64,000 bases of DNA from an uncultured Fibrobacterota bacterium (GCA_963753345.1 CAVWBU010000021.1:128001-192000); one strand, 5' to 3'. Positions 3,015 through 56,838 are shown, counted from the stretch's first letter. Notes: generated from the sequence alone by a model not told the origin. Made by a program: numbers and translations.

Positions 3015-3165
3015 GGTGGGGGAAGTATCCCCCTGGGGTGCCATGTCGAGACTCAAGGTCATGATTTAAATCTGATGTCTCGACATTGGCACCCACACCC
3101 CCTCCTGGGTGCACCCCAAGAGAGGGTAGCTGCAAGAATCAAGCACCTGTGTGGGGGCACCCGCG
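3015..3165 (-). repeat. Repeat family A, copy 2
   Basis: Reverse complement reads GGGTGCCCCCA...TGGGGTGCACCCAGGAGGGGG-TGTGGGTGCCAATGTCGAGAC...GTCTCGACATGGCACCCCA-GGGGGATACTTCCCCC. Confidence 0.85.
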
Positions 3166-3387
3166 TAGTGCGGTTGTTGACGGAAGAGGAATTGGCTTGT
3201 TTGAATAGCACAGCCCGCGCATTCCCCGCGACTTGGCGCGGGGAATGCGGGCGAATATTTATTATTCTATTTCCTTAGCTATGGAAGATCCCCGCCACTT
3301 GGGGCGGGGTTCTTCAATCCACCACAACGTGGTGGAATATCCCAGCCCGGGGCAACGCCCCGGGAATACAAGGAGAACAAAGCACAT

Positions 3388-3439
3388 TTCCCCTCTCCAC
3401 TTGTGGAGAGGGGTGGCCGCGACAGCGGACGGGGTGAGG
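3388..3439 (-). repeat. REP-like palindrome (CCTCACCCC...CCCTCTCC-loop-GGAGAGGG)
   Basis: Hairpin CCCCTCTCCAC/GTGGAGAGGGG; related copy at 49649-49686. Confidence 0.6.
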
Positions 3440-3488
3440 CGACCGTTTGGCGCCAAAAGGTAATTGACTTAAAAGAATCCTTCCGCCG

Positions 3489-3648
3489 CGCGTTAGGTGG
3501 ACCGGAGGGTGAGCTGGAGCGAATTGCCGGCCGACCCGGCCGTCAGGCATAGGGCGGTCCGGCAACGAGGCGAACAGCCGAGCCCGCAGGGAGACCGACC
3601 CCATGGAGAGCCGCACGGCAGTGCGGCTCTCCATGGGGGAACGCCCAA
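3489..3648 (-). repeat. Repeat family B, copy 1
   Basis: Reverse complement reads TTGGGCGTTCCCC[hairpin]GGGTCGG...CCTCCGGTCCACCTAACGCG. Confidence 0.85.
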
Positions 3649-3663
3649 GGTATTTGTATTATT

Positions 3664-4590
3664 ATGATTGAAAATCAAAAATCAGCATTTGTATTTCCCG
3701 GCGCCGCAGTCGAACCCTGCGGCGCGGAAGCGGCGTTCTACGCGAAACACCGGGAGGTGATGCGGCCGTTTCTTGTCAAGGCGTCCGGTGCGGCGGGGAT
3801 CGACCTTGAGCAAACCCTGGACAAGGGCCTGCTTTCAGAACTTGACGAACGCAACAGCCAGCTTTTTACCTTTGCGTACTCGCACGCCGTGGCCCAGGCG
3901 CACCGGCGTGCGGGCGTGTCGCCCGCGGCGGTCGCGGGGTACAGCCTCGGGATCTACGCTGCGATAACCGTTTCCGGCGCCCTGGCATTCGACCAAGGCC
4001 TGTCCGTTGTCGGCGCCGTGTTCGACATCATGAAGGAGCAATGCGCCGGCGGCGCCTACGCCATGGGCGCCGTGGTGGGGCTCTTGCAATCGGACACGGA
4101 TCGAATCGTCGCATCCGGAAAGTTCCCGTCGATATGCCGCACCAACACCAACAACGAGACATGCGGCGTGTTTTCCGGCACAAAAGCGGACATCGAGGCG
4201 TTTTTTGCCGAGGCACGCACCGAAGGCGCGCTCTCCACGGTCACCTTCAGGGTGAGCATCCCATACCATCATCCAAAATTCATCGGCGGCGCATCGGCCA
4301 GGTTTGTCCGCGTCCTGGAGGATTTTTCGTTTTGCGACGCGGCCGTGCCGGTGATCTCCTCCATCGACCAGAAGCCGCTTGTCAAGGCCGGCGACCTTGT
4401 GGAGTTCGTCGTGAAGAACTTTTCCTCGCCCGTGCACTGGCAGAAGGTGACAGAGACCATTGCCGCCATGAGAGTCACCACGGTGTACGAGTGCGGGCCG
4501 GGCATCTCCCTGCGCCAGAACGGAAGGTTCATTCCCAACCGTCTGCGCTATATCACGGTCAAGAGAGCAACCAGGAGCAACGCTGTTTGA
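3664..4590 (+). CDS. fabD: ACP S-malonyltransferase-like acyltransferase
   Basis: AFVFPG, GYSLG nucleophile motif, PYHH, SPVHW, ECGPG. Confidence 0.8.
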   Translation: MIENQKSAFVFPGAAVEPCGAEAAFYAKHREVMRPFLVKASGAAGIDLEQTLDKGLLSELDERNSQLFTFAYSHAVAQAHRRAGVSPAAVAGYSLGIYAAITVSGALAFDQGLSVVGAVFDIMKEQCAGGAYAMGAVVGLLQSDTDRIVASGKFPSICRTNTNNETCGVFSGTKADIEAFFAEARTEGALSTVTFRVSIPYHHPKFIGGASARFVRVLEDFSFCDAAVPVISSIDQKPLVKAGDLVEFVVKNFSSPVHWQKVTETIAAMRVTTVYECGPGISLRQNGRFIPNRLRYITVKRATRSNAV

Positions 4591-8920: not shown

Positions 8921-9243
8921 TTGGGCGTTCCCCCCTGAAGAGCCGCACTGCCGAGCGGCTCTTCAGGGGGGTCGGTTCCACCCCTCCGGGTGCTTCGAGG
9001 CGTCGTCCTTCCGGTCCACCCCTTCGGGTGCTTCTCCCTCGTCAGGGATTTCCAAGGGTCACAAGGGTCGTCGGCCTTCGGCCTCGGGCCATCTAATTGC
9101 AGAATGTAGATTGTAGAATGTAGATTTGAAATGCGAAGACCAACCGGAATGTTTTTTCAATCTACAATCATCAATCTAAAATCTACAATTAAGAGTCCGG
9201 GCGGCATCCCGCTTTGGCGGGACCTCCAGTCGCCCCTAACGCG
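8921..9243 (+). repeat. Repeat family B, copy 2 (expanded by an internal heptamer hairpin)
   Basis: TTGGGCGTTCCCC...GGGTCGG...CCTCCAGTCGCCCCTAACGCG, with GTAGATT/AATCTAC arrays at 9096-9190. Confidence 0.85.
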
Positions 9244-9397
9244 AAAGTCAAAAAACGGAAAACTGACAAAAGGTAATTAAAAATTGGGAACAGGGTGTGG
9301 ATGGATTTATTTTGATCAGTAAGGCAATGCTTTAGTAAAAACCGCTCGCGCCTGGCGTTTGAAGATGGATGCTTATCATATCAAATAGGATCCGTTC

Positions 9398-12300
9398 ATG
9401 AACTACAACCTCGATCCTATCCGCGATTTGGTCAAGAGATTCTCTCAAAACAAGGAATCCTACTCCGCCGCCTCCTACAACGAGACCCAGCTCCGCCAGG
9501 AATTCCTCAACCCGTTCTTCGAAGCGCTCGGCTGGGACGTTGCGAACAAGCAGGGCTTTGCCGAAGCGTACAAGGAAGTCATCCACGAAGACGCGGTAAA
9601 GGTCGGAACCGCGACCAAGGCGCCCGACTATTCCTTCCGGGTGGGAGGGACGCGCAAGTTCTTCGTGGAGGCGAAAAAGCCTTTTGTAAATATCAAAGAT
9701 GATATCAGCCCGGCTTTTCAGCTCCGCCGCTACGCATGGTCGGCAAAGCTGCCGCTTTCGGTGCTCACCGATTTCGAAGAGTTCGCGGTGTATGATTGCA
9801 GGCTCAAACCGGTCAAGACCGACAAGGCAAGCATCGGACGAATCCTTTACATAAAGTATGATGAATACGAAAAACGCTGGGAAGAAATAGCGTCTATCTT
9901 CTCGAAAGATGCGGTCCTCAAAGGATCGTTCGACCGGTATGCCGAAACAAACAGGGCGAAAAAAGGGACCACCGAGGTAGACGATTCGTTCCTTTCCGAA
10001 ATAGAGAACTGGCGCGACATGCTCGCGCGCAACATAGCGATCCGCAACGAAAAGCTTTCCACGCGCGAACTCAACTTCGCGGTCCAGCGCACCATCGACC
10101 GCCTTATCTTCCTGCGCATCTGCGAAGACCGCGGCATAGAAGATTATGGCAGGCTCCAATCACACCTGAACGGCGAAAACGTTTACAAGCGGCTTTGCGT
10201 TCTTTTCCGCGAAGCGGACGACCGGTACAACTCTGGCATTTTCCATTTCCGCGAGGAAAAGGGACGAGAGGAAACGCTTGACAGCACGACGCTTTCGCTC
10301 GACATAGACGATAAAGTGCTCAAGGAGATAATCGAGAACCTGTACTACCCCGAAAGCGCATATGAGTTTTCAGTCTTGCCCGCCGACATCCTGGGCCAGG
10401 TATACGAACAATTCCTGGGCAAGGTGATCCGCCTTACCACCGGGCACCAGGCAAAAGTAGAAGATAAGCCGGAGGTGAAAAAGGCAGGCGGCGTTTTTTA
10501 TACGCCGACGTACATTGTGGACTACATTGTAAAGAATACGGTGGGCAAGCTGCTTGAAAATAAAACCCCTTGGGAAGCTGAAAAACTTCGCATTCTTGAT
10601 CCTGCTTGCGGGTCAGGGTCCTTCTTGATAGGTGCTTATCAATATTTGTTGGATTGGCACCGTGATTGGTACACTAAGAACTGGCATGAGAAGTGGTGCT
10701 ATGGCAAGAATCCAAGGCTATATGAAGCACGGGAAAAGGAGTACCGGCTCACAACGCCAGAACGAAAAAGGATATTGCTCAACAGCATCTACGGCGTTGA
10801 CATTGACACACAGGCAGTGGAGGTTACGAAATTATCGCTTTTGCTGAAAGTACTTGAAGGGGAGAATGAGCAGAGCATCGCACAACAGTTAAAATTATTC
10901 CATCAGAGAGCTTTGCCGGATTTGGGGAATAATATTAAGTGCGGGAATTCTTTGATAGGAATGGATTTTTATGACGGTGTTCAGGAAACAATGTCGCTTT
11001 ATGAGGATGCCGAAATTGAAGATCGGATCAAGGTAAATGCGTTTGATTGGGATATGAAACACGGTTTTCAGGATATTATGAGGAGCGGGGGATTTGATGC
11101 GGTGATTGGGAATCCGCCGTATGGGGCTCAAACTTTCCAAGAAAAGCCGAAACTGAAGTTACCATTCTATAGAAACCATTATAAGCTGCCAAAGTTGGGT
11201 CAATTAGGACTTCTTATGTAATTGTTTATTGAAAGCGGTATTGACCTTACTCAGAAGTAAAAAGGGCTATTTGGGCTATCATTATTCCAGCCTCGTAGTT
11301 GTCTAAGGCGAAAGTATACATGCCATCAGCGCGAATTCATCCAAGTGGGAAGCATTAGTCGCAGTATAATGCATTTCGATGACCATTAGATATTTGAAAG
11401 TGCATACTACAGACACGTGATAATTGTTTTTCCTTAACTAAAGACCAAATGCAGATCCATTTTGTTTTCTAAAGAAAAGATGTAGATAAATGGATAACTC
11501 AAAGCATAGCCTAAAGATGTAGATCAAAGCTGACAGCATAATGGATAGGAATGGAGTTTTACCACAGGAAGAAATTCGGTTTTGTTCGAAAAGTTAAAAC
11601 CTTCCTTCGAAGCAAAAGAGATGTCGACAGATAAGATATTCCAAGGCCTTGTTACAATTGGTGATCTTTATACTTATTGGAAGAAATAGAATAATTGGCA
11701 AGATCCATGTGAGAGTAAACTCTTGGCGACAGCCAAACTCATATAAATCGGAAAGACAGGTTGTTCTACCTCTGTTCAAAGGATCCTGATATCCGAGGTA
11801 TTCTGCAACAACTACCAAACGAGAGATTTTTCCACACGATTTAGAAGCCTAAGATCTAACTGGCAAAGTTACAAGAATTGCACAATCGAATTTCGCAAAA
11901 TATTATCCCAATACGTGGAACTATCTAAACGAGAACGATGATTTCTTGCGGAACCGAGAAAAAGGGAAGATGAGACATGAAGGGTGGTATGGTTACATTT
12001 ATCCTAAAGGCATTGCATTGTTTGCAGAGAAGAAGATATTAACTCCTTCTATTGCCGCTACAGCTTCCTTTACGCATTGATAAAGACGGCGAATTGTACT
12101 TTGTGGGTTCGGGCACGCAATGACGGTGGTGGATATGGGCTATTCGCTCTAAAAAGCGGTGTGGAATTCGAGTATGCGTATCTTCTTGGCTTGCTGAATT
12201 CAACACTCCTTGATGTTGTTGCCTCAAGCTGATAAGATCTTGATTTAGAGGCAGCTATTATGCATAACCGTCATACATTGAACGACTGCCAATAACTCGA

Positions 12301-12535
12301 ATGACTTCTCAATATCTCTCACAAATTGTTTCGCTGCAAAATATTGTTTCCCTCGTCTCCTCCATGCTCTCCCTCCACCAAGAACTTTCCCTTGCCAAGA
12401 CCGATCAGGAAAAAATCGTCCTCCAGCGCCAGATCACCTCCACCGACAGCCGCATCGACGCTCTCGTCTACACAACTCTACGGCCTCACCGAAGAGGAAA
12501 TCAAAATCGTCGAAGGCGCCGGCGAAGGGAAATAG
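9398..12535 (+). pseudogene. Type IIG (Eco57I-like) fused restriction endonuclease/N6-adenine methyltransferase; TRD region broken by many indels
   Basis: APDY..VEAKK nuclease motif, ILDPACGSGSF, IGNPPY; open to about 11130, fragmented after; C-terminal IDALVY/LYGLTEEEIKIVE tail ends at 12535. Confidence 0.8.
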
Positions 12536-12574
12536 AACTTCGGTTCTTCCGGGCAACCAATTCCGCTGGCTGCA

Positions 12575-12680
12575 GATTGCTTCGCGGAGTTTATCCCGAG
12601 CTCTGTCGAGGGGCTCGCAGTGACACTTTTCTCTCTTCAATCCGCATTCCGCAATCCCAGCCCTGAGCTTTGTCGAAGGG
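12575..12680. repeat. REP-like mosaic (GATTGCTTCG...CTCGCAGTGAC with two CCYGAGC..GTCGA.GG hairpins)
   Basis: CCCGAGCTCTGTCGAGGG at 12595 and CCCTGAGCTTTGTCGAAGGG at 12661; related motifs at 26292-26326 and inside B copy 6. Confidence 0.55.
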
Positions 12681-12700: not shown

Positions 12701-12842
12701 TGGTGCCCCCGCAGCAGAAGTTTCTTTCTTGCAGACCAACTTGCTTGGGGGCTACCCAGAGGGGGCAGCGCAGGACCGGCGCGGAATAACGTGAACTTTG
12801 AAAATATGAGCGACGGGCCGAAGCGAGGGGGAGACTTCCCCC
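12701..12842 (+). repeat. Repeat family A, copy 3
   Basis: GGTGCCCCC...GGGGGCTACCCAGAGGGGG...AGCGAGGGGGAGACTTCCCCC. Confidence 0.85.
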
Positions 12843-13133: not shown

Positions 13134-13418
13134 CTACGGATTCCTTCCCGTGGGGTTCCAGCTCTGCGCCGTGGTGAAGAGCAGCACGATAAACGCCATG
13201 GTACCTATGGCAAGCGCCACGAATTTCCCGTATTCAACTTTTCTCTTGACGATCTTGATCTTCCCGGCCGATCCCCGGCCGACCGTGTCCGCCGCGTGCC
13301 TGGAGGAGTCTGCGGCCAGGGAGTCGCGGCGCGGGGTAATCGGCGTTCCGAACGATATCTGGCAATAGCCCGGCCAAGCGATTGACGCAAGGATAAGAAA
13401 CGCCGCGAGCCGTCTCAT
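13134..13418 (-). CDS. Small hypothetical membrane protein
   Basis: Signal-like N-terminus, C-terminal TM helix, ATGA overlap with the gatB stop. Confidence 0.55.
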   Translation of the reverse strand: MRRLAAFLILASIAWPGYCQISFGTPITPRRDSLAADSSRHAADTVGRGSAGKIKIVKRKVEYGKFVALAIGTMAFIVLLFTTAQSWNPTGRNP

Positions 13419-14856
13419 GCCGTCCCCTTGCCCAACAGCTCGGCAACCAGCTTGCTGATCTCTTTCGGGTTGCCCTTGCCTCCCGTGGCTCTCATAACCT
13501 GCCCCACAAAGAACCCCGCAAGCTTTGTCTCACCTGCAGTGTACCGCTGCGCCTCCTTCGGGTTCTTTGCCGCAATGTCCTTCACGACCTTCGACAGTTC
13601 GGCAGAATCGGAAATCTGCGACAGTCCCTGTTCTTTGATTATTGTGTCCGGATCTTTGCCATGATCTTCCATGTCATCGAGTACTTTTTTGGCTGCGTTG
13701 GCGGAAACTGCGCCCGTTGACACCAGCGTGAGCAATCTTCCAAAGGCCATCGGCGTAACCCTGGCCTTGAAACCGTCGATTCCAATCTTTTTTTCCTTGA
13801 CGATTCTAAGCACTTCGCCCATCACCCAGTTGGCAACGAGTTTCGCATCTTTACAGAAAGCGAGCGCGTCTTCAAAATAGCGGGCAACCGCGGGTTCCAG
13901 GGTAAGCACCTCCGCCATGTAGGCGGTGACGCCGAAGTCGGCAATAAATCTTGAGCGTTTTTGTGCGGGCAACTCGGGCATGTCTTTCTTGATCGTTTCG
14001 ATCCACGCCGGCTCAACCACGAGCGGCAGGAGGTCGGGCTCCGGGAAATAGCGGTAATCGTGCGCCTCTTCCTTGGTGCGCATGGCAACGGTCCGGTTAC
14101 TGTCCGGGTCCCACCGGAACGTCTGCTGTACGATAGTCTCGCCCGACAGCACGGCCTCGCGCTGCCGAAGGGCCTCGTAGGCGAGGGCCTTTTCCACGCC
14201 GCGGAAGGTGTTCATGTTCTTGAGTTCGATCTTGGTGCCGAGTTTTGTTTCGCCCGCGGGCCGTATCGAGATGTTGGCGTCGCAGCGGAGGCTGCCCTCC
14301 TCCATGTTGCAGTCGCATATGCCGAGATAGCCGAGGATCTGCTTGATGGCCGAAAGATACGCGTAGGCTTCCTGCGCGGTTCGCAAGTCCGGCTCGCTCA
14401 CGATTTCGATGAGCGGCGTGCCGCAGCGGTTGACGTCGAAGAGCGAGTCTTCATCCTGGTCGTGGATGAGTTTCCCGCGTCCTCTTCGAGGTGGATGCGG
14501 TTGATGCGGATGGTCTTCTTCCTTCCGTCAACCTCTATCGCCACCGATCCGCCGGCGCACAGCGGCATGTCGTACTGGGAGATCTGGTAGCCTTTCGGGA
14601 GGTCGGGGTAGAAGTAGTTCTTCCTTGCGAAAATGGAATTGCGCGCAATGGAGCAGCCCACGGCCAGCCCCATAAGAATGGTCATTTCCACGGCGCGGCG
14701 GTTGAGCACCGGCAGCGAACCGGGAAGCCCGAGGCACACCGGGCAGCCGTGCGTGTTGGGCGCGTCGCCGAATTTCGGAGCGCACCCGCAGAAGATCTTC
14801 GTTGTCGTGAGAAGCTCGGCGTGTATTTCGAGGCCGATGACGGTTTCAAATTCCAT
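13415..14856 (-). CDS. gatB: Asp/Glu-tRNA amidotransferase subunit B (1-nt frameshift near 14472)
   Basis: [56 protein letters not shown]; one A missing in AGKLIH. Confidence 0.95.
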
Positions 14857-17599: not shown

Positions 17600-17776
17600 C
17601 TGGGCGTTACCCCGCCTCGCGCTTCGGCGTGAGGCGGGGTCGGTCTTCTTCCGGGCTCGGCTGTTCGTCTCGTTGCCGGTCCGCCCTATGCCTTGCGGCC
17701 GGGCACCCCGTCGGGTGCTTCCAAGGGTCGTCGGCCGGCAATGCGCTCCACCGCACTTACCGTCGCCCCTAACGCG
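17600..17776 (+). repeat. Repeat family B, copy 3
   Basis: TGGGCGTTACCCC[hairpin]GGGGTCGG...GTCGCCCCTAACGCG. Confidence 0.85.
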
Positions 17777-17965: not shown

Positions 17966-18463
17966 TTATAGCAGCGCTTTCACAAAATGATATCCGAAAA
18001 GAATCACCAAAAGAGAGATATTCGTAAGTATCCCCGCCGCCACGTCGTCCATCACGATGCCAAGGCCGCCCTCGAGGTATTCCATGTTGTGGACGGGGAA
18101 CGGCTTTACAATATCGAAAAAGCGGAACAGGAAGAACCCGAGGATGATCGTCTTCACCGACAGCGGCACAAAGAGGAACGCCACGAGCTGGCCCGCGCAC
18201 TCGTCGATGATCACCCGCGACGGGTCGTCCTCGCCGAACACCTCCCGCGGCCGCGACGACACGAGCACCGAAAACGCGACGACAACAAGCGACAGCACCC
18301 ACAGGTGGGCGGGCGTTACGGCCGGGCCCTTTACGCACGCGAACCACCACAGCGCGCCGGCCGTGATGGCCGAGCCGATGGTGCCCGAGGCGAGGGGAAT
18401 GTAGCCGAGGAACAGAACCGAGGCCAGGGCTTTCTGGAGCCAGATGACGATTGGGTGTTTCAT
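17966..18463 (-). CDS. pgpA: Phosphatidylglycerophosphatase A
   Basis: SGTIGS, DPSRVIIDECAG, FRFFDIVKP, GIVMDDVAAG. Confidence 0.92.
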   Translation of the reverse strand: MKHPIVIWLQKALASVLFLGYIPLASGTIGSAITAGALWWFACVKGPAVTPAHLWVLSLVVVAFSVLVSSRPREVFGEDDPSRVIIDECAGQLVAFLFVPLSVKTIILGFFLFRFFDIVKPFPVHNMEYLEGGLGIVMDDVAAGILTNISLLVILFGYHFVKALL

Positions 18464-18492
18464 GATTATTTCCTATTTTTGTAATTAAAGAC

Positions 18493-18635
18493 TTGGGCGT
18501 TCCCCTCTCTTCGCTCGGGTCGGTTCTCCTTCCGGTCTCGGCCTTCGGCCTCCGGCCGCCTCGGCCCTAGGCCGCTGTAGCGGCGGGTCCAGGCGGCACC
18601 GCGCTCCAGCGCGGCCTCCAGTCGCCCCTAACGCG
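18493..18635 (+). repeat. Repeat family B, copy 4
   Basis: TTGGGCGTTCCCC...GGGTCGG...CCTCCAGTCGCCCCTAACGCG. Confidence 0.85.
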
Positions 18636-18792
18636 CAGCAGAGGAATTCTATTCAGTCAAGTTATATCTATGCGCCAACCCAAGTTTCTATTGAGATTGT
18701 TTAGATTTTCTTCTTGAACTACTCAGCTCCTCCACTTTTCAACTCTTCAACGATTCAACTTCTCAACTTCTCAACATCTCAACTCTATTTCT

Positions 18793-18942
18793 CGGTGCCC
18801 CCGCAGCCGAAGATTCTTTCTTGCAAATCAACTCTCTAGGGGGCTACCCACGAGGGGGTGTGGGTGCCAATGTCGAGACGTTGGATTTTTGGCATTGGTT
18901 TTGAGTCTCGACATGGCACCCCAGGGGGACCCTTCCCCCACC
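18793..18942 (+). repeat. Repeat family A, copy 4
   Basis: Same GTCGAGAC/GTCTCGAC middle-hairpin subtype as copy 2. Confidence 0.85.
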
Positions 18943-18945
18943 AAA

Positions 18946-19560
18946 TTACTCATTCTTCTTATCACCATATGAAATTTCCACCCTCTCATGAAGCGCCTGA
19001 TTGAGCGTCATCTGATCTATGTATTCCAGCTCGGTTCCCGCGGGCACGCCGCGCGCGAGCAGCGTGATCTTGAGGTGCATGCCGGAAAAAATGCGGGCCA
19101 GGTACAGGCAGGTGGTCTCGGCTTCCGCGCTGGCCCCGAGCCCGAGGATAAGCTCCTTGACGCCGCCCGCGTCGAGCCGCGCCTTCAGCTCCGAAAGGTG
19201 CAGCTTGTCGGCGGTAATGCCGTTGATGGGCGAGAGCACGCCGCCGAGCACATGGTACAGGCCGCGGAAGATCCCGGACTTTTCGAACACGAGCACGTCC
19301 TGCGGTTTTTCCACCACGCAGATCACCGACGAATCGCGCGAGGTTGACGAGCACACGTCGCACAGTTCGGCAGTGCCGTAGTTGAAGCACCGTTTACACA
19401 CGGTGATCTTCGATTTGATGCCGGCGATGCACTGCGACAGGGTGTCGAGCTCGGCCTGGGGCCGCTCCAGAAGATACAGCGCGAGCCGCAGCGCGGTCTT
19501 CCTGCCGATGGTGGGCAGCCGGCAGAGCGCGTCAACGAGGCTGTCGAGCGGTTCGATCAT
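18946..19560 (-). CDS. recR: Recombination mediator RecR
   Basis: LPTIGRKTALRLA, C4 zinc finger, ICVVE, YHVLGG Toprim domain. Confidence 0.93.
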   Translation of the reverse strand: MIEPLDSLVDALCRLPTIGRKTALRLALYLLERPQAELDTLSQCIAGIKSKITVCKRCFNYGTAELCDVCSSTSRDSSVICVVEKPQDVLVFEKSGIFRGLYHVLGGVLSPINGITADKLHLSELKARLDAGGVKELILGLGASAEAETTCLYLARIFSGMHLKITLLARGVPAGTELEYIDQMTLNQALHERVEISYGDKKNE

Positions 19561-19694
19561 GGGTTCATCCCTTGCAGCGCAACACAAGACTCACCACAGA
19601 GTCACAGAGAACACACAGAGAAATGCCAGGAGAGCCAGAAGTTGATTGTCCTACCGTCAACGGACAACCGTCAACTGTCAACAACGATTCTTTA

Positions 19695-20018
19695 TTACGG
19701 CCCTAACCCCAGTGCTCCCAGATCCATCCCCTGGGTGAGGCTGCCGAGCGCGGCGTTCGACTGTTCCTTCACCTTTTCCTGCGCGTTCTTGAACGCGGCG
19801 ACAATGAGGTCTTCGAGCATCTCCACGTCGTCGGGGTCCACCACTTCGGGGTTGATGGCAATCCCCGCGCAGTCGCCGCCGCCGTTCATGGTCACCTTGA
19901 CCATGCCGCCGCCGGCGGTGCCTTCGAAAGTCTGTTTGGCCAGTTCCTCCTGCGCCTTTACCATCTGCGACTGAAGCCGCTGCGTCTGTTTGAGAAGTTT
20001 GTTGAGGCCCTTCGGCAT
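19695..20018 (-). CDS. ybaB: YbaB/EbfC nucleoid-associated protein
   Basis: GTAGGGMVKV, DVEMLEDLIVAA; lies between dnaX and recR. Confidence 0.93.
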   Translation of the reverse strand: MPKGLNKLLKQTQRLQSQMVKAQEELAKQTFEGTAGGGMVKVTMNGGGDCAGIAINPEVVDPDDVEMLEDLIVAAFKNAQEKVKEQSNAALGSLTQGMDLGALGLGP

Positions 20019-20050
20019 GCTTTGCTCCTTTGGTAAGTGGAACGGCGGGG

Positions 20051-21775: not shown

Positions 21776-21895
21776 AATAATTTTAGATTTTAGAATGTAG
21801 ATTGACGATTTAGAATACAGTACATCAGGCGTTCATCCTCGAATTGGAATACAGATTCCTTGTCCAACAAAAATAGATTATTCCCCATATATATT

Positions 21896-22303: not shown

Positions 22304-22380
22304 TAAAAAGGGAATGAACGATAAGTAACTGGACTTTATAAATCTACAATCTACAATCTTCAATCTACAATGGTAAAAGC

Positions 22381-22480: not shown

Positions 22481-22601
22481 ACAGTTAATTGTAGAATGTA
22501 AATTGTAGATTGTAGATTGAAATTCCGGAGACCTCGTTTCCCGGCGATGCGAAGCGTGCAAAAAATAGCATTTGCGCCGGGCCGAGCAAACGGTTGATTG
22601 C

Positions 22602-28420: not shown

Positions 28421-28590
28421 TTGGGCGTTCCCCTCGCTGCACTCGGGTCGGTCCACCCCTTCGGGTGCTTCCAAGGGTCGTCCCTCCGGTCTCGGGCTCG
28501 CCCTCGGGCCGCCTCGGCCCCTATGCCGGCGTACCGGCGGGGTCCGGGCGGCATCCCGCCATAGCGGGACCTCCGGTCGCCCCTAACGCG
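28421..28590 (+). repeat. Repeat family B, copy 5
   Basis: TTGGGCGTTCCCC...GGGTCGG...CCTCCGGTCGCCCCTAACGCG. Confidence 0.85.
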
Positions 28591-28691
28591 CGGCAGAGGA
28601 AGTCTTATCAGTCAACTACTTTATCTTGCGCCAATTGGTATCCGGAAATCGGGGCTTCTTCAATATGTTTTCTACTTTTCAACTGCTCCTC

Positions 28692-28837
28692 GTGGGTGCC
28701 GCCACAACAATGCATAGTCTTGCAGCTGCTTTATCAAGGCGGCTACCCTAGAGGGGGTAGCGCAAGACCGGCGCGGAATGCGGTGAACTTTGATGATGTG
28801 AGCGCCGGGCCGCAGCGAGGGGGAACCTTCCCCCGCC
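28692..28837 (+). repeat. Repeat family A, copy 5
   Basis: Close to copy 1, including the GCCGCC/GGCGGC stem variant. Confidence 0.85.
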
Positions 28838-31407: not shown

Positions 31408-31561
31408 TTGGGCGTTCCCCTCCCCCTCGACTTCGCTCGGGGTCGGGTCGGCCCTCCTTCCGGTCTCGGCCTTCGGCCTCGGGCTGCCACGGCCGTATGC
31501 CGCTTCGCGGCCGGTCCGGGCAGCACCGTGCTCTAGCACGGCCTCCAGTCCTGCCTAACGC
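31408..31561 (+). repeat. Repeat family B, copy 6
   Basis: TTGGGCGTTCCCC...GGGTCGG...CCTCCAGTCCTGCCTAACGC. Confidence 0.85.
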
Positions 31562-31662
31562 AGCGCATGCGGGATTCTTATCAATCAAATATTTCTTCTC
31601 ACGCCAAACTGCATTCGCAGACATCAGCCAAGATTACTTTCTTTGCTTTTCAACTACTCTAC

Positions 31663-31814
31663 GTGGGTGCCCCCCAACCGAAGCAACTTTCTTGCAAATC
31701 AACTTCCTTGGGGGCCACCCAAGAGGGGGTAGCGGAGGACCGGTCGCGCACCTCCGGGATACTTGTTTGTAAAGCGGCGCGGCCGGGCCGCAGCGAGGGG
31801 GAGTCTTCCCCCGC
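31663..31814 (+). repeat. Repeat family A, copy 6
   Basis: GGGTGCCCCCC...GGGGGCCACCCAAGAGGGGG...GCGAGGGGGAGTCTTCCCCC. Confidence 0.85.
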
Positions 31815-41303: not shown

Positions 41304-41441
41304 AGCGCCAGGCAGGACTGGAGGCCGCGCTGAAGCGCGGTGCCGCCTGACCACGGCCCGAAGGGCCCTCGTGGTAGGCGGCCCGAGGCCGAAGGCCGAG
41401 ACCGGAAGGACGGCCGCCGCCGTCTTCGGCGGGGCGCCCAG
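41304..41441 (-). repeat. Repeat family B, copy 7 (compensatory variant)
   Basis: Reverse complement reads TGGGCGCCCC...CCTTCCGGTCTCGGCCTTCGGCCTCGGG...CCTCCAGTCCTGCCTGGCGC. Confidence 0.8.
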
Positions 41442-42115: not shown

Positions 42116-44803
42116 ATGTCACGACACGAGACCTCCGTCAAATTTCTTGAGTCCAGGCTCAACGAGAACCCGCAGTCGCTCGTTTTCTCCCGTCTTGCCG
42201 ACGGCATCCGCGAAAGCGGAGATATCCAGCAGGCGATCTCGGTGTGCATGGATGGCCTCGCCCGTCACCCGGACTGTCTCACGGGCAGGGTGGTTCTGGG
42301 ACGGTGCTACCTGGAGCAGGAAAACCTCAAGGAGGCTGCCGCCGAGTTCGTGGCGGTGCTCAAACTTGACAGACGCAATCACACCGCGATCAAGATGATC
42401 GCCGACATCTGCGCGCGCCAGGGACTCAAGGAAAAGGCCGGGGATCTCTACGCGAGCCTGCTCGGCATGGACCCGGACAACCAGTCGCTCGTCGAGCTTG
42501 CCAGCACGTTCCGCGGAACAGGCGATACCGACCTTTTCAGCATCCTTGGCATGTCATCCGTCGCCGGCAGGGTGGCCGTTGCGCCTGCGCCGGCGGCCGA
42601 CGACACGATTGCCGACGCCGACAGGACCATAGAGTTTGACGTGGAACCGAGCCGGGCCGCGGCTTCCGCAGGGGAGGATACCGAGGTCGGCGAAATGATG
42701 GCAAAGACGCAGCAGTTCGATCCGAAGGATCTCGGTGTGGCCGACAGGGCTCATGATGACACGGTGCTGACTTCAGACGTGCTCACCGGAGACGATGTGA
42801 GCTCGCGCATGGAGACGATGTTCGACATCGGCCCGGAAACCCCGCCTGCCGCAGCGCCGGAAGTGCACGAGCACATTGAGCTCGGAAGCGGTGATGAAAC
42901 CCTGGGCCCCGCCGACGATGCGGCCGCAGGAACGGTCAGGGGCGAAGAAGCGGGGGTCGTGTCGGGAAGCGACATCACCTCGCGCATCGAGCAGCTGTTC
43001 GGCGAAGAGACGCCGGTGTCTCCGCCTGAACCGACTGTTGCCGAGGCCCCAACCAGGGAAGTTGCGCGCGACGAGTTACGGCCCGTGGAGTCTTCGGCGC
43101 TTTCCGGAGAAGACATCACCTCGCGGCTCAACGAAATGTTCGAGGGCGAGCCTGCCATCGAACCTTTGGCGGAAGACACGCTGATGGAAAAACCGGTCTT
43201 GCCGGCCGACACCAAGGTTGGACCGCTTCTTGAGATCGAGGCAGAGGCGCCGGCCGGGACCGTCACGGGCGCTACGGAGGAGATTGTCCTGGGGCCGCGG
43301 GAGCCGGCGCGGCATCCCGCCGAGGAAACCGTGCTTTCCGGCGACGACGTGGCGCTGAGGCTCGATACGATATTTGACGAAGGGGAAGAAGCCGGGCCGC
43401 CCGCAAACGAAGCGGTCGCGACGCAGTCTGCGGAGGCGACCGATTTATCCACAGCCGACGGCGACAAGACACAGACCGCCGAGACGTTCCGCGCGGGAGA
43501 GGACACGAAGCCGCCGTTTGACATAGAGGAAGCCGGCGTTGTCGTCGACGAGGTGGGCTTTGACGCCGCGTCCGAGACGCTGGTGGTCGAGGAGGCGGGA
43601 AAGTCCTCTCAGGCTGCTGCTCCGCAGGAGCCGCCCGAGGCTCCCGATGCCCCCATCATCATCGACGACGCAGTTGTGGCCGAGGAGGAGCAGGAGTCTG
43701 AGTCCGGCATGTCCGGAGACGACGTGGTTGGACGCATGGAGGAGATATTCACCGAGGAGCCTGGTTCGGGAGGAACTGCCGCGCCGGCAGCACCTGCAAA
43801 GGAAGAAGCGGCAATGCATCTTGACTTTATCCCGGTGACCGAAGAGGAAGCCGGGACGGCCGGAGAGCCCAGTACTGCGCCGACCGATGTTGACAAAACA
43901 GATATCGCGGCCCCGGAATCGGACACGCTTGACCTTTCGGGCGAGACGGAGGAGCGGACGATTCTCATGGACGAGGACAGCGGCGCGGAGACAATGCCGG
44001 CCGAAGAGGAAACCATGGTGACCGGAGGGGAAGATGAGACCATGGTGGCCAGAACCGAAGCCGAGACCCTTCCTTCCGAGGCCGAGGCTGAAACCATGCC
44101 TGCCGAAGCTGAGGCTGAGACCATATCGGCCGGAGGGGAAGATGAGACCATGGTGGCCAGAACCGAAGCTGAGACCCTTCCTTCCGAGGCCGAGGCTGAA
44201 ACCATGCCTGCCGAAACTGAAGCTGAGACAATGTCGGCCGGAGCCGAAGCTGAGACTATGGCCGTTGAGGACGAAGCTGAGACCATGGTTTGGTCCCGTT
44301 CGGACCCGTTTCTGGATTCCCCGTTCCGCACCGGCTCGAAAACAGGAACTGGCGCACCGAAGGAAACGGAAAGCGTTACTCCGCGGGATTCTGAACAGGA
44401 CATTTTTACGGATCAGGAAAAAGGGGCGGGCGCGGAGTCGGATCAGGCCTTTTCCATTCCCGACCACGTGCTCACGCCGACCCTCGCCGACATCTATTAT
44501 CAGCAGGGGCAGCCCCGGCTCGCGCTGCAGATTTTCCGGCGGCTCCTTGACGCGGACCCGGACAACGAACGCATTGCGAAACGCATCAGGGAAATAGAGG
44601 CCGGCCTCAACGCCGACATCGAGCCGGCAGGTGTCGAGGAAACCGTGGTGACGACGCCCACCCCCAAGGGGGACGTGAAGCCGCCCGCCCAAAGGGTAAA
44701 ACCGAAGGTTGACAAAAAGAAAAAGGCGGCCGCTGCGGAAAAACCGCTTTCCGGCGTGCGCATCAGGAAGAAAGCCAAGACCAGGCGCAGGAAGACGAGG
44801 TGA
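42116..44803 (+). CDS. Large acidic protein with N- and C-terminal TPRs and internal repeats
   Basis: TPR-like N-terminus, E/D/T/A-rich linker, TPTLADIYYQQG TPR, basic tail. Confidence 0.75.
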   Translation: MSRHETSVKFLESRLNENPQSLVFSRLADGIRESGDIQQAISVCMDGLARHPDCLTGRVVLGRCYLEQENLKEAAAEFVAVLKLDRRNHTAIKMIADICARQGLKEKAGDLYASLLGMDPDNQSLVELASTFRGTGDTDLFSILGMSSVAGRVAVAPAPAADDTIADADRTIEFDVEPSRAAASAGEDTEVGEMMAKTQQFDPKDLGVADRAHDDTVLTSDVLTGDDVSSRMETMFDIGPETPPAAAPEVHEHIELGSGDETLGPADDAAAGTVRGEEAGVVSGSDITSRIEQLFGEETPVSPPEPTVAEAPTREVARDELRPVESSALSGEDITSRLNEMFEGEPAIEPLAEDTLMEKPVLPADTKVGPLLEIEAEAPAGTVTGATEEIVLGPREPARHPAEETVLSGDDVALRLDTIFDEGEEAGPPANEAVATQSAEATDLSTADGDKTQTAETFRAGEDTKPPFDIEEAGVVVDEVGFDAASETLVVEEAGKSSQAAAPQEPPEAPDAPIIIDDAVVAEEEQESESGMSGDDVVGRMEEIFTEEPGSGGTAAPAAPAKEEAAMHLDFIPVTEEEAGTAGEPSTAPTDVDKTDIAAPESDTLDLSGETEERTILMDEDSGAETMPAEEETMVTGGEDETMVARTEAETLPSEAEAETMPAEAEAETISAGGEDETMVARTEAETLPSEAEAETMPAETEAETMSAGAEAETMAVEDEAETMVWSRSDPFLDSPFRTGSKTGTGAPKETESVTPRDSEQDIFTDQEKGAGAESDQAFSIPDHVLTPTLADIYYQQGQPRLALQIFRRLLDADPDNERIAKRIREIEAGLNADIEPAGVEETVVTTPTPKGDVKPPAQRVKPKVDKKKKAAAAEKPLSGVRIRKKAKTRRRKTR
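44022..44237 (+). repeat. Intragenic tandem duplication, 2 x 108 bp built from 27-bp units
   Basis: CCGGAGGGGAAGATGAGACCATGGTGGCCAGAACC... at 44022 and 44130. Confidence 0.9.
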
Positions 44804-49686: not shown

Positions 49687-49744
49687 CCATTGGTCTGTGC
49701 TTATCGCAATTGTAAAGTAGCCAGTGCATTTACCGCCACTCTCC

Positions 49745-49873
49745 GTGGGTGCCCCCACACAGGTGCCTGTTTCTGCAGCTGCTTCCACTTGGGGTGCACC
49801 CAGGAGGGGGTAGCGGAGGACACCGCAGGCCGAAGGCCGAGGAGGCCGCAGCGAGGGGGAAACTTCCCCCACC
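49745..49873 (+). repeat. Repeat family A, copy 7
   Basis: GGGTGCCCCCA...TGGGGTGCACCCAGGAGGGGG...GCGAGGGGGAAACTTCCCCC. Confidence 0.85.
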
Positions 49874-49883
49874 TGAACTCTTT

Positions 49884-55300: not shown

Positions 55301-55615
55301 GACCGGGGCGATTTCCGCGCGCGCAGGGGCGGGTGCGGGGCCGGTGAGCGGAGGTGGAGCCGGAGGCTGATCCAGAAAGGTTGCGGGGGGAGGTTCGGGA
55401 CCAAATCGGGGCGCCGTCTCGGTCGGCTGAGCGGCAGCGGTTTCGGGCGAACGCGGGAACATGCGCGGCCTCACCGGCGAAGGCGCGGGCACTTCCGGGG
55501 TCGCCGCAGGCTCCGGTTCGTTGGTGACGGGCTCGCCGGACGCTGCCTTGGCTTCGTTCAGCTTCTGGATAATGTCGCCCAGCAGGAATTTTCTTTTGCC
55601 CTTTTCTTTCATCAC
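52379..55615 (-). CDS. wzc: Wzc-type polysaccharide co-polymerase/tyrosine kinase with N- and C-terminal extensions
   Basis: Two TMs flanking a coiled coil, GEGKTT, VDGDLRR, IIDSP, Tyr cluster YYPYYYGYY. Confidence 0.85.
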   Translation of the reverse strand: MMKEKGKRKFLLGDIIQKLNEAKAASGEPVTNEPEPAATPEVPAPSPVRPRMFPRSPETAAAQPTETAPRFGPEPPPATFLDQPPAPPPLTGPAPAPARAEIAPVAFETPGVKLAAAPAVAETTATEDGAPFDIMQYVGVLVRRKNIIILVSILAALFALVGYVRAVKLYTAHARMLFSPGFQDIMSDNISTQGSFNRDEQRFNTHLALLKSETLLKRVCKDLGAGITTDDIQTELKVTRGSFNGTQNDIVDIVFRNARPETARDVVNQICREYIDYMRDVNVSDLTSLITKLEDQIGKMELDVDNKENALREFKEKNRTVELSQETNITVAKLSNMELALQQTDLDMMENRNRLSQIRKEIDQQDINVIQSLTYSNPFQAKLADLELQLNSASAEYSPEHFKVRMIKNQIDKIKEALKTDITKEAESRTLVKNPIRESLLQEFINLTIEKSAAETKHDAQGKMIQEFDQELYKLPTVQLQFAQLTRETESTVGILKLLKSRYEEAKIKRDSQESDLKILEWAPLPLSGKSSMSLTNMLLYLLIGIVIGIVLAFLVEFLDQSIKDPQQVERSLEVPLLGIVPLIEMDKGIIDSSAAKWKTILEPFRALRATLKHLAATQNLKTFLICSAVKGEGKTTLAANISITFALDGKKVILVDGDLRRAQMHTLFNLPKKNGLADFLTGASDAAGVLKKTVHENLLVITAGEHPQNPAELIGSARFDQLVTTLRGMADYVIIDSPALLPVSDGLSMAPKVDACIMLVRALWTPLKAALQAKSQLKRIGCSIMGAVLNGISHSRGYYPYYYGYYRYYSYQYAYEEGQDRDRKFSMREFGLAAELKMRNALEAIRFSFPHYTAVALNFAKHLLRKKTFWVLLAVFLLLPLLPTGLRLFGIQLHNRAISYLGKKPDIQYLSTEGRAGSGSGSSLEEIASGQKVRPPDSSSLPARSVAEGIARDGAAATPQDLFAAISDSLRLWEKAFNEGDAMRYFSFYDSTRFMYPSGGFREWVSEKTAAMKQGPFVQNLHVDSMWADTAAQPFYRMSFVGTCIAGSDTSRRHYSIIWQRTNSQWRIVREKYGVLP

Positions 55616-56454
55616 CCGTGCTTTCGCATGTCGTCGAGAATAAGTTCGATGTCTTCTCTGTCGATTTCCGTGAGTTCCTGGGCGAACCCGTAGTTGAGCG
55701 CGAGTTTGCAGAGGCGGTTTATTTCCCGGGGAACCCCGCCGGTGGACCTGAAAATCATTTCGAGCGCGCTGCCGGTGAATATGCCGAGATTGTCGAGCCC
55801 GGCAATCCGGAGCCGGTGCTGGACATACTTGGCCGTGTTGTTGTAATCGAGTGTGTTGAGATGGAACCGCAGGAAGATCCGCTGGTCCACCTGGCGCAGC
55901 GACCGTATCTTTTCCCGCAGCTCCGGCTGGCCCACGAAGAAAATGGTGAGGTAATTCTGGGTTTCCGACGTGATGTTGGTGAGGTTTTTCACTTCGTCAA
56001 GCACCTTATTGTCCATCTGCTGCGCTTCGTCGAAGATGAGGACCAGGTGGCGCTTCTGCTCGTACACCAGGGCTTCGAGTTGCTTCTTGAACATCGACAC
56101 GAGAAGGTATTTGTCGTCCCGCGGCGGCCGTGCCTCCGACGCGGGCCTTAAACCGCGGAACGGGGCCCGGTTGAGAATGTCGAAGAGGATGTCGAGAAAC
56201 GAGAAATCGGAGTTTTCGAACCCTATCACTTCGAAATGCTGGTTGGGCAGGGAACTTTCGAACACGCTCTTGGTGATGGTCTTGCCGCACCCGACTTCGC
56301 CCGTGAGCAGCCCCATGTTCATGTTGCGGTCGTTTACAACATACAGCATTCTGTCGAGGGCTTCCCGGTGGTCGTCGCTTTCGAAGAAAAAACGCGTATT
56401 GCAGACTTCTTCAAACGGTTTTTCCGACAGCTTCCAGAATTTCAAGTATCCCAT
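55612..56454 (-). CDS. ExeA/GspA-type AAA ATPase
   Basis: L.EKPF, HREAL, GEVGCGKT, IFDEAQ, VGQPEL, GVPREIN.LC. Confidence 0.85.
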   Translation of the reverse strand: MGYLKFWKLSEKPFEEVCNTRFFFESDDHREALDRMLYVVNDRNMNMGLLTGEVGCGKTITKSVFESSLPNQHFEVIGFENSDFSFLDILFDILNRAPFRGLRPASEARPPRDDKYLLVSMFKKQLEALVYEQKRHLVLIFDEAQQMDNKVLDEVKNLTNITSETQNYLTIFFVGQPELREKIRSLRQVDQRIFLRFHLNTLDYNNTAKYVQHRLRIAGLDNLGIFTGSALEMIFRSTGGVPREINRLCKLALNYGFAQELTEIDREDIELILDDMRKHG

Positions 56455-56486
56455 GATCAGATTATCCTTGTGAGAGAAAAGCGTTT

Positions 56487-56618
56487 GGTGGGGGAAGTGT
56501 CCCCCTGGCCCCAAGCCTCCTCGTCCCGCGGGACTGCGGGGTCTTGGGGCACACCCCCTCGTGGGTAGCCCCCTAGTAAGTTGATTTGCGAGAAAGAACC
56601 ACTTGCTGGGGGGCACCG
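56487..56618 (-). repeat. Repeat family A, copy 8
   Basis: Reverse complement reads GGTGCCCCCC...GGGGGCTACCCACGAGGGGG-TGTGCCCCAAG...CTTGGGGCCA-GGGGGACACTTCCCCC. Confidence 0.85.
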
Positions 56619-56700
56619 AGAAAGAGAGTTGGAAGTTGACAGTTGAACGTTGAAGGCTGGCGCAAGAAAAAACAGTTGACCGAATAGATTTCTCATGCCG

Positions 56701-56838
56701 CGCGTTAGGTGGACCGGAGGGTGAGCCAGAGCGAATTGCCGGCCGACCCTCGCCGCAGGCGACTGGGGCGGTCCGGCAACGAGGCCGAACGGCCGAGCCC
56801 GCGGGGAGACCGACCCCGCAAAGCGGGGGAACGCCCAA
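56701..56838 (-). repeat. Repeat family B, copy 8
   Basis: Close to B copy 1 (CTCACCCTCCGGTCCACCTAACGCG subtype). Confidence 0.85.

Follow-up and report, generated by a model that had tools for sequence, protein, structure and literature searches.

Paired folded repeats in the intergenic gaps of a Fibrobacterota genome and their replacement in place

The spread and persistence of REP-like repeats still call for an explanation, and overwriting at conserved gaps has so far been no more than a suggestion, made for REPINs, which in such gaps 'may be overwritten' according to the accessible part of 10.1101/2024.10.14.618302. REPs are delimited by a size of 20-40 bp and a GTAG or CGTC tag in the portion of PMC3733652 available to us. 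We analyzed a 64,000-nucleotide stretch of DNA from an uncultured Fibrobacterota bacterium (the window) together with its source genome (G000), in which two unrelated repeats, B and A, occur as ordered pairs. As far as the accessible parts of PMC2817692, PMC3337134 and 10.1101/2024.10.14.618302 describe REP, BIME and REPIN systems, B and A resemble them in having hundreds of intergenic folded copies, composite units of fixed order, an excess in convergent gaps, a lineage-restricted distribution, contents that change at conserved gaps and a role as host for IS110-family insertion. In contrast to those 20-40 bp hairpins, the B and A modules are multi-branched and 130-170 bp long, their consensus sequences have neither a GTAG nor a CGTC tag, the most frequent unit combines, in direct order, two families that are unrelated, complete copies do not bracket any RAYT and the outer flanks are rewritten.

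A second comparator is Flavo-1 (RF01705; PMC2864571), which lies sense or antisense to transcripts indifferently (PMC9723704). When compared by eye with the published alignment rows, the reverse complement of B starts GCGTTAGG and ends CCGACC before the terminal hairpin, as in Flavo-1, but the interior of B is multi-branched and does not score with RF01705. This model had no match in the window or G000; control genomes were silent too in the G000 scan, and the model did match one locus, L145. Of 80 metagenome loci with the three terminal motifs of B, 46 have other interiors, none of these 46 with T (the tail that follows B, see below) or A, and one of 20 loci tested passes the Flavo-1 cut-off. 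The link between B and Flavo-1 suggests that a catalogued 'RNA' is a mobile structured repeat. Our search of the open-access literature found no paper on these repeats or on IS elements targeting Flavo-1-like repeats.

Composition and placement of the units

The unit is about 430 bp long, entirely non-coding and consists, in fixed order, of B, a tail T, 8-mer repeats and A. B (ca. 140 bp) is multi-branched and closed by a terminal stem, while A combines hairpin P on its 5' side with part Z on its 3' side. T (ca. 45 bp) is a conserved hairpin tail that joins B to A together with the 8-mer repeats. B is also found alone or opposite an inverted B, and A is also found alone. For comparison we used five relatives (G001-G005); all compared genomes are metagenome assemblies. 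The window contains the following features, given with what the relatives hold at the same site.

22..174, +, A module of a further B-T-A unit (profile match, 96.6 bits); parent unit C21:127702-128174, with its B just outside the window, upstream
3015..3165, -, unit 1, A: 5' hairpin P and 3' part Z with a terminal GGGGGA-nnn-TCCCCC hairpin; fold z -6.1
3166..3447, -, unit 1, slot: between tail and A, a nested set of several short, unrelated palindromic repeats; shorter, different filling in G001
3448..3488, -, unit 1, conserved tail T
3489..3648, -, unit 1, B; 3491-3504 match the IS110-family guide target exactly
8921..9243, +, lone B without tail, after hisD; duplicated arm and nested heptamer palindrome at about 9090-9195; another B variant in G002
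9398..12540, +, broken type IIG-like R-M gene (Pfam Eco57I, N6_Mtase, HSDR_N); interrupted beyond 11221 by stops and frameshifts
12701..12842, +, lone A between a short palindromic repeat (12575-12624) and two tRNA genes; in G001 its first 44 bases alone remain, with an inverted B behind them
17600..17776, +, lone B whose tail is degenerate (profile match); empty in G001 and G002, B...A-like unit in G005
18493..18942, +, unit 2: B (18493-18635), T ending at 18677, TCAAC-type 8-mer repeats (18736-18783), A (18793-18942); different variants of both B and A in G001, none in G002-G005
28421..28837, +, unit 3: B (28421-28590), T ending at 28633, A (28692-28837)
31408..31814, +, unit 4: B (31408-31561), T ending at 31606, A (31663-31814); a different B alone in G001
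41305..41441, -, lone B with second terminal-stem variant, GCGCC...GGCGC replacing GCGTT...AACGC (a compensatory change in 9 of 34 rows)
49741..49877, +, lone A (profile match); full B-T-A unit in G001, divergent A in G005
56487..56838, -, unit 5: B (56838-56701, IS110-family guide target 56703-56716), T ending at 56658, A (56618-56487); A alone in G001
63057..63264, -, A (63057-63214) with 8-mer repeats and a B 5' stub of 12 bases (63253-63264); G001 keeps 15 outer-end bases, then a full unit in opposite orientation

Six B/A pairs and the B stub had been described in an earlier note on this DNA, and their coordinates and strands are all confirmed, as are spacers of 82, 101, 101, 157, 323 and about 3,457 bp. 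The A at 22-174, the lone B copies near 17600 and 41300 and the lone A at 49741 had been overlooked. The note had regarded the spacer as a variable free slot; the short spacers are instead conserved sequence, with T present in 188 of 197 paired B copies. The longest spacer had been taken for a unit carrying the R-M gene as cargo and is rejected as such: its B is tail-less, its A is a lone copy, the gene is broken and homologues in G005 have no flanking B or A. The gap between gatB and the SPOR gene was dropped as a candidate empty site, the relatives' apparent insert being gatB's own frameshift. An Rfam scan of the window returned two tRNAs and SRP RNA and nothing else; over 18300-32000 nothing rose above noise at E <= 10.

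Profile searches of G000 (94% complete, 4.8% contamination) found B at 399 loci and A at 279, along with 265 matches to the tail, and gave 0 matches in the reversed genome; redundant, nearly identical contigs in the assembly raise these counts by a few per cent. B and A loci make up 2.4% of the genome and form about 197 units, 2 of which are called inside a gene. When grouped into 447 element loci, 194 have the order B-T-8mer-A and 29 combine B with an inverted B. As the note had proposed, B precedes A on the same strand (true for 196 of the 198 A copies that have B no more than 400 bp away) and the two co-occur above chance: of 856 intergenic gaps of at least 380 bp, 181 hold both, compared with 77 expected (p 3e-64). 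The folded repeat pairs are genuine and occupy about 200 intergenic gaps. The same order is found in 55 of 56 close pairs in G001 and among the matches listed for G002, G004 and G005. G003, a 99% complete genome of the same genus, contains no elements, and the window sites are mostly empty in G002-G005. Elements are in excess in convergent gaps, and units show a replication-strand bias (97 vs 58; in convergent and divergent gaps 44 vs 26, p 0.04). No match for A or B-T was found in plasmid sequences, viral contigs gave 0 matches to one exact A pattern, and no multi-copy protein family of at least 4 members is tellingly enriched near elements.

Both B and A show compensatory base pairs, measured on profile-aligned rows and not on the poorly aligned 309-row and 209-row sets, and the long-range compensatory pairs of B hold in 95-96% of B copies. 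Single B copies fold like shuffles (z about -1.3 to -1.6), and single A copies reach z values of -1.3 to -6.1. The TTGACT hexamer of the tail has, by eye, no -10 box at 17 bases. The accessible part of a paper on heptamer repeats (PMC4679880) holds nothing usable for the 8-mer repeats.

Contents of occupied gaps are replaced in place

An occupied gap tends to stay occupied while its contents are replaced wholesale by other variants, sometimes inverted. Among syntenic gaps of G000 and G001, 62 of 67 are filled in both, a figure that overstates shared occupancy because the G001 contigs were picked for holding elements. The copy at the same site is the best match in 4 of 79 comparisons (B 1/44, A 3/35); in every one of four neutral-drift simulation runs it ranked first 25 times out of 25. 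A weak vertical signal remains in same-site copies (KS p 0.008 and 0.002). Between contigs of the G000 assembly that are 92-99.9% identical, 10 of 12 colinearity breaks fall on elements, compared with 4% for random positions, and at one of these breaks an entire unit has been exchanged, its flanks being 99.9% and 97% identical. Whole units are found in opposite orientation at the same gap at loci L040 and L046 (at 2506). The polymorphism between relatives that the note had anticipated is supported.

Replacement leaves stubs of 10-20 bases of older outer hairpins and rewrites 20-30 AT-rich bases per side; target duplication is not seen. GCC-type B copies follow an inverted A-end stub in 14 of 110 cases (control 14 of 3,280) and B follows an older B 5' stub in 17 of 369 (control 21 of 3,280). 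Identity over the first 20 bases outside either end is 0.58-0.63, compared with 0.53-0.59 for unrelated pairs, and rises to about 0.85 farther out. At 2 of the 4 sites that are empty in G000 both outer stubs are still present, and G000, G001 and G002 share the same stub-linker-B junction. Units also receive insertions: further palindromic repeats, an IS110-family element and, on rare occasions, a gene.

We lean towards reading the units as a large BIME/REPIN-like mosaic of interchangeable modules that is overwritten in place. A BIME-like mosaic had been the note's own alternative and is the one that the data support. An enzyme acting in trans would nick the folded single strand at its outer hairpins or close to them, in line with the mobilization in trans that the note had suggested, and a copy from another site would then be patched into the nicked element. 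Nicking at outer hairpins combined with patching would make existing elements the preferred targets. Since the long and variable modules show each event, whether as donor-like replacement, stubs, rewritten flanks or differences between 97-99.9% identical contigs, the process is measurable and the substrates for an enzyme search are defined.

The repeats could alternatively be structured RNA or DNA signals useful to the host, for example in transcript protection, pausing or nucleoid binding, which selection keeps in place and which, in the absence of a dedicated enzyme, are homogenized by ordinary gene conversion or by uptake of DNA. The strong fold conservation and the persistence of sites across species are consistent with this, and both A (33 vs 7) and whole units (75 vs 29) lie antisense to co-directional genes. 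UUCG-type loops are found on the B strand (303 CTTCGG vs 28 CCGAAG). However, lone B copies show no strand preference (47 vs 47), and G-T vs A-C counts (70 vs 90 in B, 49 vs 69 in A) do not single out a folding strand for B or A. The lack of elements in G003 and the mostly empty window sites in G002-G005 also argue against such a host function, and conversion between homologous copies would not leave inversions, stubs and rewritten outer flanks. We therefore consider host signals unlikely.

Modules are copied separately

The note had interpreted B and A as the left and right ends of one non-autonomous element, which would be excised and inserted whole and capture genes. The strict order and orientation and the whole units inverted at one gap are in keeping with this. 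MITEs and non-autonomous IS200/IS605 derivatives are non-coding, multi-copy and polymorphic between relatives and have structured ends, features that the units share. In contrast to these, unit flanks and filled or altered sites show, by eye, neither terminal inverted repeats between B and A nor target duplication, no autonomous partner with the same ends was found among the enzyme families searched, and the ends are not inherited together. Mantel tests across 142 units detect no linkage between parts of B and either half of A (|rho| <= 0.06), linkage being confined to B-middle, B-3' and T (rho 0.17-0.53). Half of B (202 of 399) and 29% of A (82 of 279) are unpaired in G000, and unpaired A and B within 5 kb adopt the element geometry 10 times and the other three geometries 10, 8 and 6 times, no better than chance. 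Recent copies (95-98%) span leader and B, not B to A, and end at the B 3' motif. In addition, B-T was added before an identical A in a comparison of contigs C16 and C4, the 3' half of A is found without B in other genera, and the two empty sites mentioned above keep both outer stubs.

Also in favour of the two-ends interpretation, a single gene followed by A within 1 kb is found after 3 of 44 free tail-bearing B copies and in 0 cases for the other three geometries. At one such site G000 and G001 carry lipoprotein paralogues of 32% identity flanked by the same tail and linker, and G005 is empty; two species with different paralogues in one slot indicate that gene capture happens, as the note had proposed, though rarely. 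But this site is a general hotspot with other inserts in G002, G003 and G004. Overall, B and A are not cognate ends of one element, and the proposal that they are, already largely refuted, is very improbable.

Candidate enzymes and the IS110-family element

For the overwritten mosaic, a HUH (RAYT-like) nuclease is our tentative first choice of enzyme, with host repair or recombination second. The absence of a transposase reported in the note holds for the window but not for the genome, which contains an IS110-family element in B and three RAYT-like ORFs scoring 50-59 bits against a family cut-off of 80. One of these ORFs lies between two inward-pointing B 5' stubs, one has B on one side, and GTAG-type palindromes of their own accompany two of the three. 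No Pfam Y1_Tnp was found in G000 or G001 and no reverse transcriptase in G000, G001, G003 and G005; small GIY-YIG genes are not bracketed by B or A. The enzyme gene flanked by the same ends that the note had envisaged was not found in the 94% complete genome for Y1, IS110, GIY-YIG, reverse transcriptase or tyrosine recombinase, and no complete B or A copies bracket an enzyme gene. Rfam returned nothing around the integrases and the IS. A more ambitious and rather doubtful proposal is a copy-and-overwrite system whose dedicated enzyme would read the outer hairpins of B and A, rewrite the entire intergenic cassette using modules taken from elsewhere, add 20-30 AT-rich bases per junction and sometimes carry a surface-protein gene; the roughly 400 gaps would then be a fast-shuffling network and B the most elaborate member of a multi-phylum Flavo-1 superfamily of mobile structured DNA.

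The IS110-family element (recombinase above the NF033542 cut-off) is inserted at the same position of B in two genomes, as seen from two copies with both junctions in G005 and the right junction plus 4 left bases, at a contig end, in G000. The two strands of a predicted internal RNA loop match the two halves of the B target, and the putative guides in G000 and G005 differ in step with their B variants. By eye, matching flank and guide are also present in G012, G019, G023, G054 and G075. Judged by these sequence matches, B is the likely landing site of an RNA-guided transposon, and the pair would represent two natural guide-target variants on a structured target with about 100 copies per genome.

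A resident recombinase might itself drive the turnover, either this bridge recombinase at the B 3' end or an integron integrase acting on the folded strand. The guide matches 96 B copies, recent copies end at the same B 3' motif, and an integron integrase above cut-off is directly followed by a unit; no cassette array was recognized beside it. However, most breakpoints are at the B 5' hairpin, the slot and the A end, and the linkage of B-3' to T persists across the IS target (rho 0.37). G000 contains neither another copy of the IS nor a mini-element with its ends, the IS was not found in the B-bearing genomes G001, G002 and G004, and B has, by eye, GTT 5' and AAC 3' on both strands, the reverse of the attC polarity (RYYYAAC ... 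GTTRRRY). Turnover by a resident recombinase is thus exceedingly improbable, and the IS110-family element is best seen as a parasite of B rather than the agent that moves it. The least probable explanation is that apparent overwriting is an assembly artefact of similar repeats and mixed strains, as unfinished metagenome assemblies and the redundant contigs and 4.8% contamination of G000 might suggest, but similarity among copies is only about 80%, module order and paired stems are preserved in the replaced stretches (400-550 bp), long-range pairs hold in nearly all B copies and the same stub-linker-B junction recurs in three genomes.

Insertion into a repeat of this kind has a precedent in the REP-targeting IS1111 elements treated in the accessible part of PMC11187229. 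There, IS1111-type elements with a seek or bridge RNA that targets REP or attC (ISPa11, ISKpn4) share with the present IS an IS110-family recombinase and an internal RNA loop matching both halves of a structured, repeated target; ISPpu10 is another IS1111-type comparator, to the extent covered by the available text of 10.64898/2026.03.19.712850. Measured against these partial descriptions, the long non-coding region downstream and the short subterminal inverted repeats of the IS are also similar, but its target is B and, with the junction as placed, its end-to-repeat distances misfit the usual 7 and 3 bases. The IS1111-type likeness concerns the parasite and not the B-T-A unit.

Abundance and anatomy of the B and A repeats

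The B and A repeats are real, abundant and active; they are of the BIME/REPIN kind, much larger and new. Their modules, the fixed module order, overwriting (replacement of the contents of an occupied gap by other copies) and an insertion-sequence target are established computationally. Using profiles built first from window copies and then rebuilt with genome matches, we identified 399 B loci, 279 A loci and 265 tail matches in the studied genome G000 (4.5 Mb, 55 contigs, 94% complete, 4.8% contaminated), locus counts that are a few per cent too high owing to redundant contigs. The same profiles gave no matches in the reversed genome. A and B together cover 2.4% of the genome. The pairs listed in the earlier note were correct on rechecking in position, strand and spacer length, and its B-then-A order holds genome-wide: B lies upstream on the same strand in 196 of the 198 A copies with a B within 400 bp, and there are 197 close pairs. 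The claimed co-occurrence is above chance with gap size controlled (181 gaps with both versus 77 expected, among 856 gaps of at least 380 bp). The 447 element loci comprise 194 B-A, 141 lone B, 78 lone A, 29 B with inverted B and 5 others. In co-directional gaps, antisense to sense orientation relative to the genes is 75:29 for units, 33:7 for lone A and 47:47 for lone B, and units favor the C-rich strand (97 versus 58).

The note's variable spacer is borne out in its lengths but is not a free slot, since the spacer is itself structured. Behind B lies T, a conserved tail about 45 bases long, present in 188 of 197 paired and 68 of 202 unpaired copies; next in the unit come a variable stretch, 8-mer TCAAC-type repeats, a short leader and A. 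The variable stretch often contains other short palindromes that are also found away from B, some of which we take to resemble repeats tied to small nucleases. The terminal stem of B exists in two versions, GCGTT...AACGC (25 of 34 rows) and GCGCC...GGCGC (9 of 34), and is paired in 95-96% of 353 rows versus 58% expected, with additional covarying pairs in the interior. A consists of a 5' hairpin, P, and a 3' part, Z; the P pair 14-55 is retained in 260 of 260 rows versus 64% expected. Some of the same gaps are filled by at least one further family of multi-hairpin repeats, which is related to the inverted A end (L033:4637, L046:4415, C2:5771 and others).

REP/BIME/REPIN systems are closest to these repeats in behavior, and modules are swapped at occupied gaps, which favors the BIME-like mosaic that the earlier note had offered as its alternative. 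In the portion available, the REPORTH preprint (10.1101/2024.10.14.618302) states that REPINs may be overwritten where the gap is conserved, and PMC11893778 describes a small-nuclease-associated repeat type; known relatives are further covered, in the parts available, by PMC3337134, PMC2817692, PMC3733652, PMC1525189, PMC11208160 and PMC6006769. B fails the cut-off of RF01705 (Flavo-1) but shares its termini, and the accessible published alignment rows agree by eye (PMC2864571). The pattern of B's three terminal motifs occurs in at least 123 metagenome stretches. Among the 80 retrieved, 46 have a different interior and neither T nor A (tallied from the table), and A lies downstream in 10, every one with the B interior; 1 of 20 stretches tested passed the Flavo-1 cut-off.

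The window corresponds to C21:128001-192000 of G000, and its genes are unremarkable, among them fatty-acid, his, gatB, recR, dnaX, polysaccharide and riboflavin genes. A TIGR02147 paralogue suggests membership of Fibrobacterota. gatB (13415-14856, minus strand) is interrupted by a one-base frameshift relative to G001, probably an assembly error because gatB is essential. A TIGR02436 four-helix-bundle gene (21896-22363, minus strand) lies between the SRP RNA (22380-22478) and dnaX and is flanked by heptamer repeats (21778-21816, 22335-22371, 22486-22524), which are also nested in B at 9090-9195. A PAS/histidine kinase/receiver gene (22602-26074, minus strand) is apparently in three pieces, and a TPR protein gene contains a 27-bp tandem repeat (44000-44296).

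Overwriting at occupied gaps

We compared G000 with its relative G001, whose flanks are 90% identical, using 49 of about 570 G001 contigs (391 kb), 40 of them picked for carrying elements, so that occupancy is biased upward. The comparison covered 91 syntenic gaps. An element is present in one or both genomes at 67 of these: 62 are filled in both, four in G001 only and one in G000 only. Presence/absence polymorphism, as a mobile unit had been predicted to display, is observed at orthologous gaps. Two of the four G001-only gaps still carry both outer stubs (short leftovers of older outer hairpins) in G000. When G001 copies were matched to those of G000, the copy at the same site came first for B in 1 of 44 comparisons and for A in 3 of 35. 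Same-site identity was 0.84 for B and 0.83 for A. Random paralogues reached 0.81 (B) and 0.80 (A), the best paralogue 0.91 and 0.89, and element-free orthologous gaps (n = 85) 0.86. Simulated neutral drift of 14% or 25% left the same-site copy at rank 1 in 25 of 25 cases each. A weak vertical signal persists at same-site copies (KS p < 0.01). Fillings of the same gap alternate between B-A, B with inverted B, lone A, lone B and reversed orientation. The window sites are mostly empty in G002-G005; therefore, new sites are also colonized over longer times.

Within G000, contigs 92-99.9% identical to each other represent either co-binned strains or duplications. Their colinearity breaks fall on elements in 10 of 12 cases versus 4% of random positions, with one perfect 6-mer array excluded from the count. 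One 6-bp unit forms perfect arrays both at C16:165548-167679 and at C18:146537-148151 (2.1 and 1.6 kb). Three differences between near-identical contigs are:

C32/C54: whole unit replaced
C4/C5: B-T-inverted B versus B-T-A
C16/C4: leader-B-T present ahead of an identical A

The scars are regular. An inverted A-end stub lies 32 bases upstream of B in 14 of 110 GCC-type and 1 of 259 GTT-type copies (control 14 of 3,280), and the 5' stub of an older B lies ahead of B in 17 of 369 cases (control 21 of 3,280). Identity of the first 20 bases of the outer flanks (B 5', 35 sites; A 3', 26 sites) is near the level of unrelated pairs and returns to about 0.85 by 50 bases from the element.

Element ends and gene cargo

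The earlier note had proposed that B and A are the left and right ends of one gene-capturing element. They are not two ends, because their variants are unlinked, recent copies comprise B and its leader only and Z occurs without B in other genera. Across 142 units (11 of 153 parsed units having been removed as duplicates), B-middle, B-3' and T are linked with rho of 0.53, 0.37 and 0.17. Neither P nor Z shows linkage to any part of B (|rho| <= 0.06), and linkage between P and Z is slight (rho 0.04). A whole-module Mantel test found no link of B and A (rho -0.02, p 0.83). Contrary to this, 18 of 120 nearest-B neighbors also had a top-5% A versus 6 expected, with duplicates still included. Among the longest 28 of 66 matches, copies 95-98% identical at unrelated loci cover 148-182 bases of B, in most cases together with a fixed leader, and none runs from B to A; longer near-identical matches are duplicated contigs. 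When 81 genomes of the order were scanned with covariance models (40-43 candidates scored per genome), B was detected in 5, all of the same genus, and A in 22; G003, of that genus, has no B by this model. At 9 of 9 A-type loci examined outside the genus, Z stands alone behind other hairpins.

Gene capture between B and A survives in rare real cases: a free tail-bearing B is followed by one gene and then A within 1 kb in 3 of 44 instances, versus 0 for other geometries. The long-range geometry is at chance. Unpaired A and B adopt the element geometry 10 times within 5 kb (10, 8 and 6 for the other three) and 13 times within 10 kb (12, 13 and 11). At C47:30333, lipoprotein paralogues of G000 and G001, 32% identical, lie between the same tail and linker. 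The site is empty in G005 and has unrelated inserts lacking B or A in G002, G003 and G004, and is therefore a hotspot. The gap at L229 and L250-L254 shows five states over six genomes, including two lipoprotein paralogues in B-T...A, another gene and nothing; fillings include a two-gene pair that is presumably a BrnT/BrnA-like toxin-antitoxin module and a transposase that we take to be IS5-like. A small ORF at L230 (G000 C22:212-652), AT-rich and lipoprotein-like, lies within a B-T...A unit and has a predicted sigma-70 promoter that is near-perfect by eye.

The R-M gene of the window, put forward earlier as B-A cargo, was rejected as such: its B is tail-less, the gene is disrupted beyond 11221, and two homologues in G005 have neither B nor A alongside. 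The case consists of two independent repeats in neighboring gaps beside tRNA genes. On its 3' side, the G001 site carries a stub of A together with an inverted B. The R-M 5' region (9198-9778; L020) is 92% identical in protein between G000 and G002 (hisD 76%), and the DNA shared around it starts inside the 3' end of B; the region may have been transferred recently, with B marking one edge.

An IS110-family element in B and candidate enzymes

The single IS110-family gene of G000 (NF033542, 179 bits) has an 83% identical relative in G005, and both elements are inserted in the 3' end of B around an AG core (the G000 left junction lies at a contig end). The region downstream of the gene is predicted to fold such that internal-loop strands match both target halves, and the putative guides of G000 and G005 differ exactly as the respective B variants differ. 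The G000 guide target occurs 99 times, 96 of them in B, and the G005 target 33 times, always in B. Both targets are present in G001, G002, G004 and G005, and neither in G003. Relatives in nine other genomes of the order and three named genomes differ in guide and in flanks, and none is inserted in B; at L092-L095 and L099 they display natural guide reprogramming, with guides fitting their own flanks by eye. A search for a mini-element bearing the IS ends found none, and linkage between T and B spans the target; we therefore read the element as a parasite of B. The available text of PMC11187229 describes IS1111 elements that carry a downstream RNA and have REP and attC sites as targets, and that of 10.64898/2026.03.19.712850 an IS110 element requiring a target stem-loop. 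G002 contains a second IS110-family element (L085, L086), 25% identical and with a different target, one copy of which adjoins a B stub, linker and A-end stub.

A Pfam Y1_Tnp search of G000 gave no match, and a search for reverse transcriptase found none. A motif scan identified three RAYT-like ORFs that score 59, 50 and 50 bits against NF047646 (cut-off 80); two have their own GTAG-type palindromes. The ORF on C35 is flanked by two inward-pointing B 5' stubs and that on C32 has B on one side. An integron integrase scores above cut-off (TIGR02249, 454 bits; L302:3735-5030, equal to G000 C18:30734-32029) and is directly followed by a unit, with no cassette array recognized beside it. Two more integrase-like tyrosine recombinases fall below the TIGR02249 cut-off. 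The core triplets of integron attC sites appear in B in reverse order.
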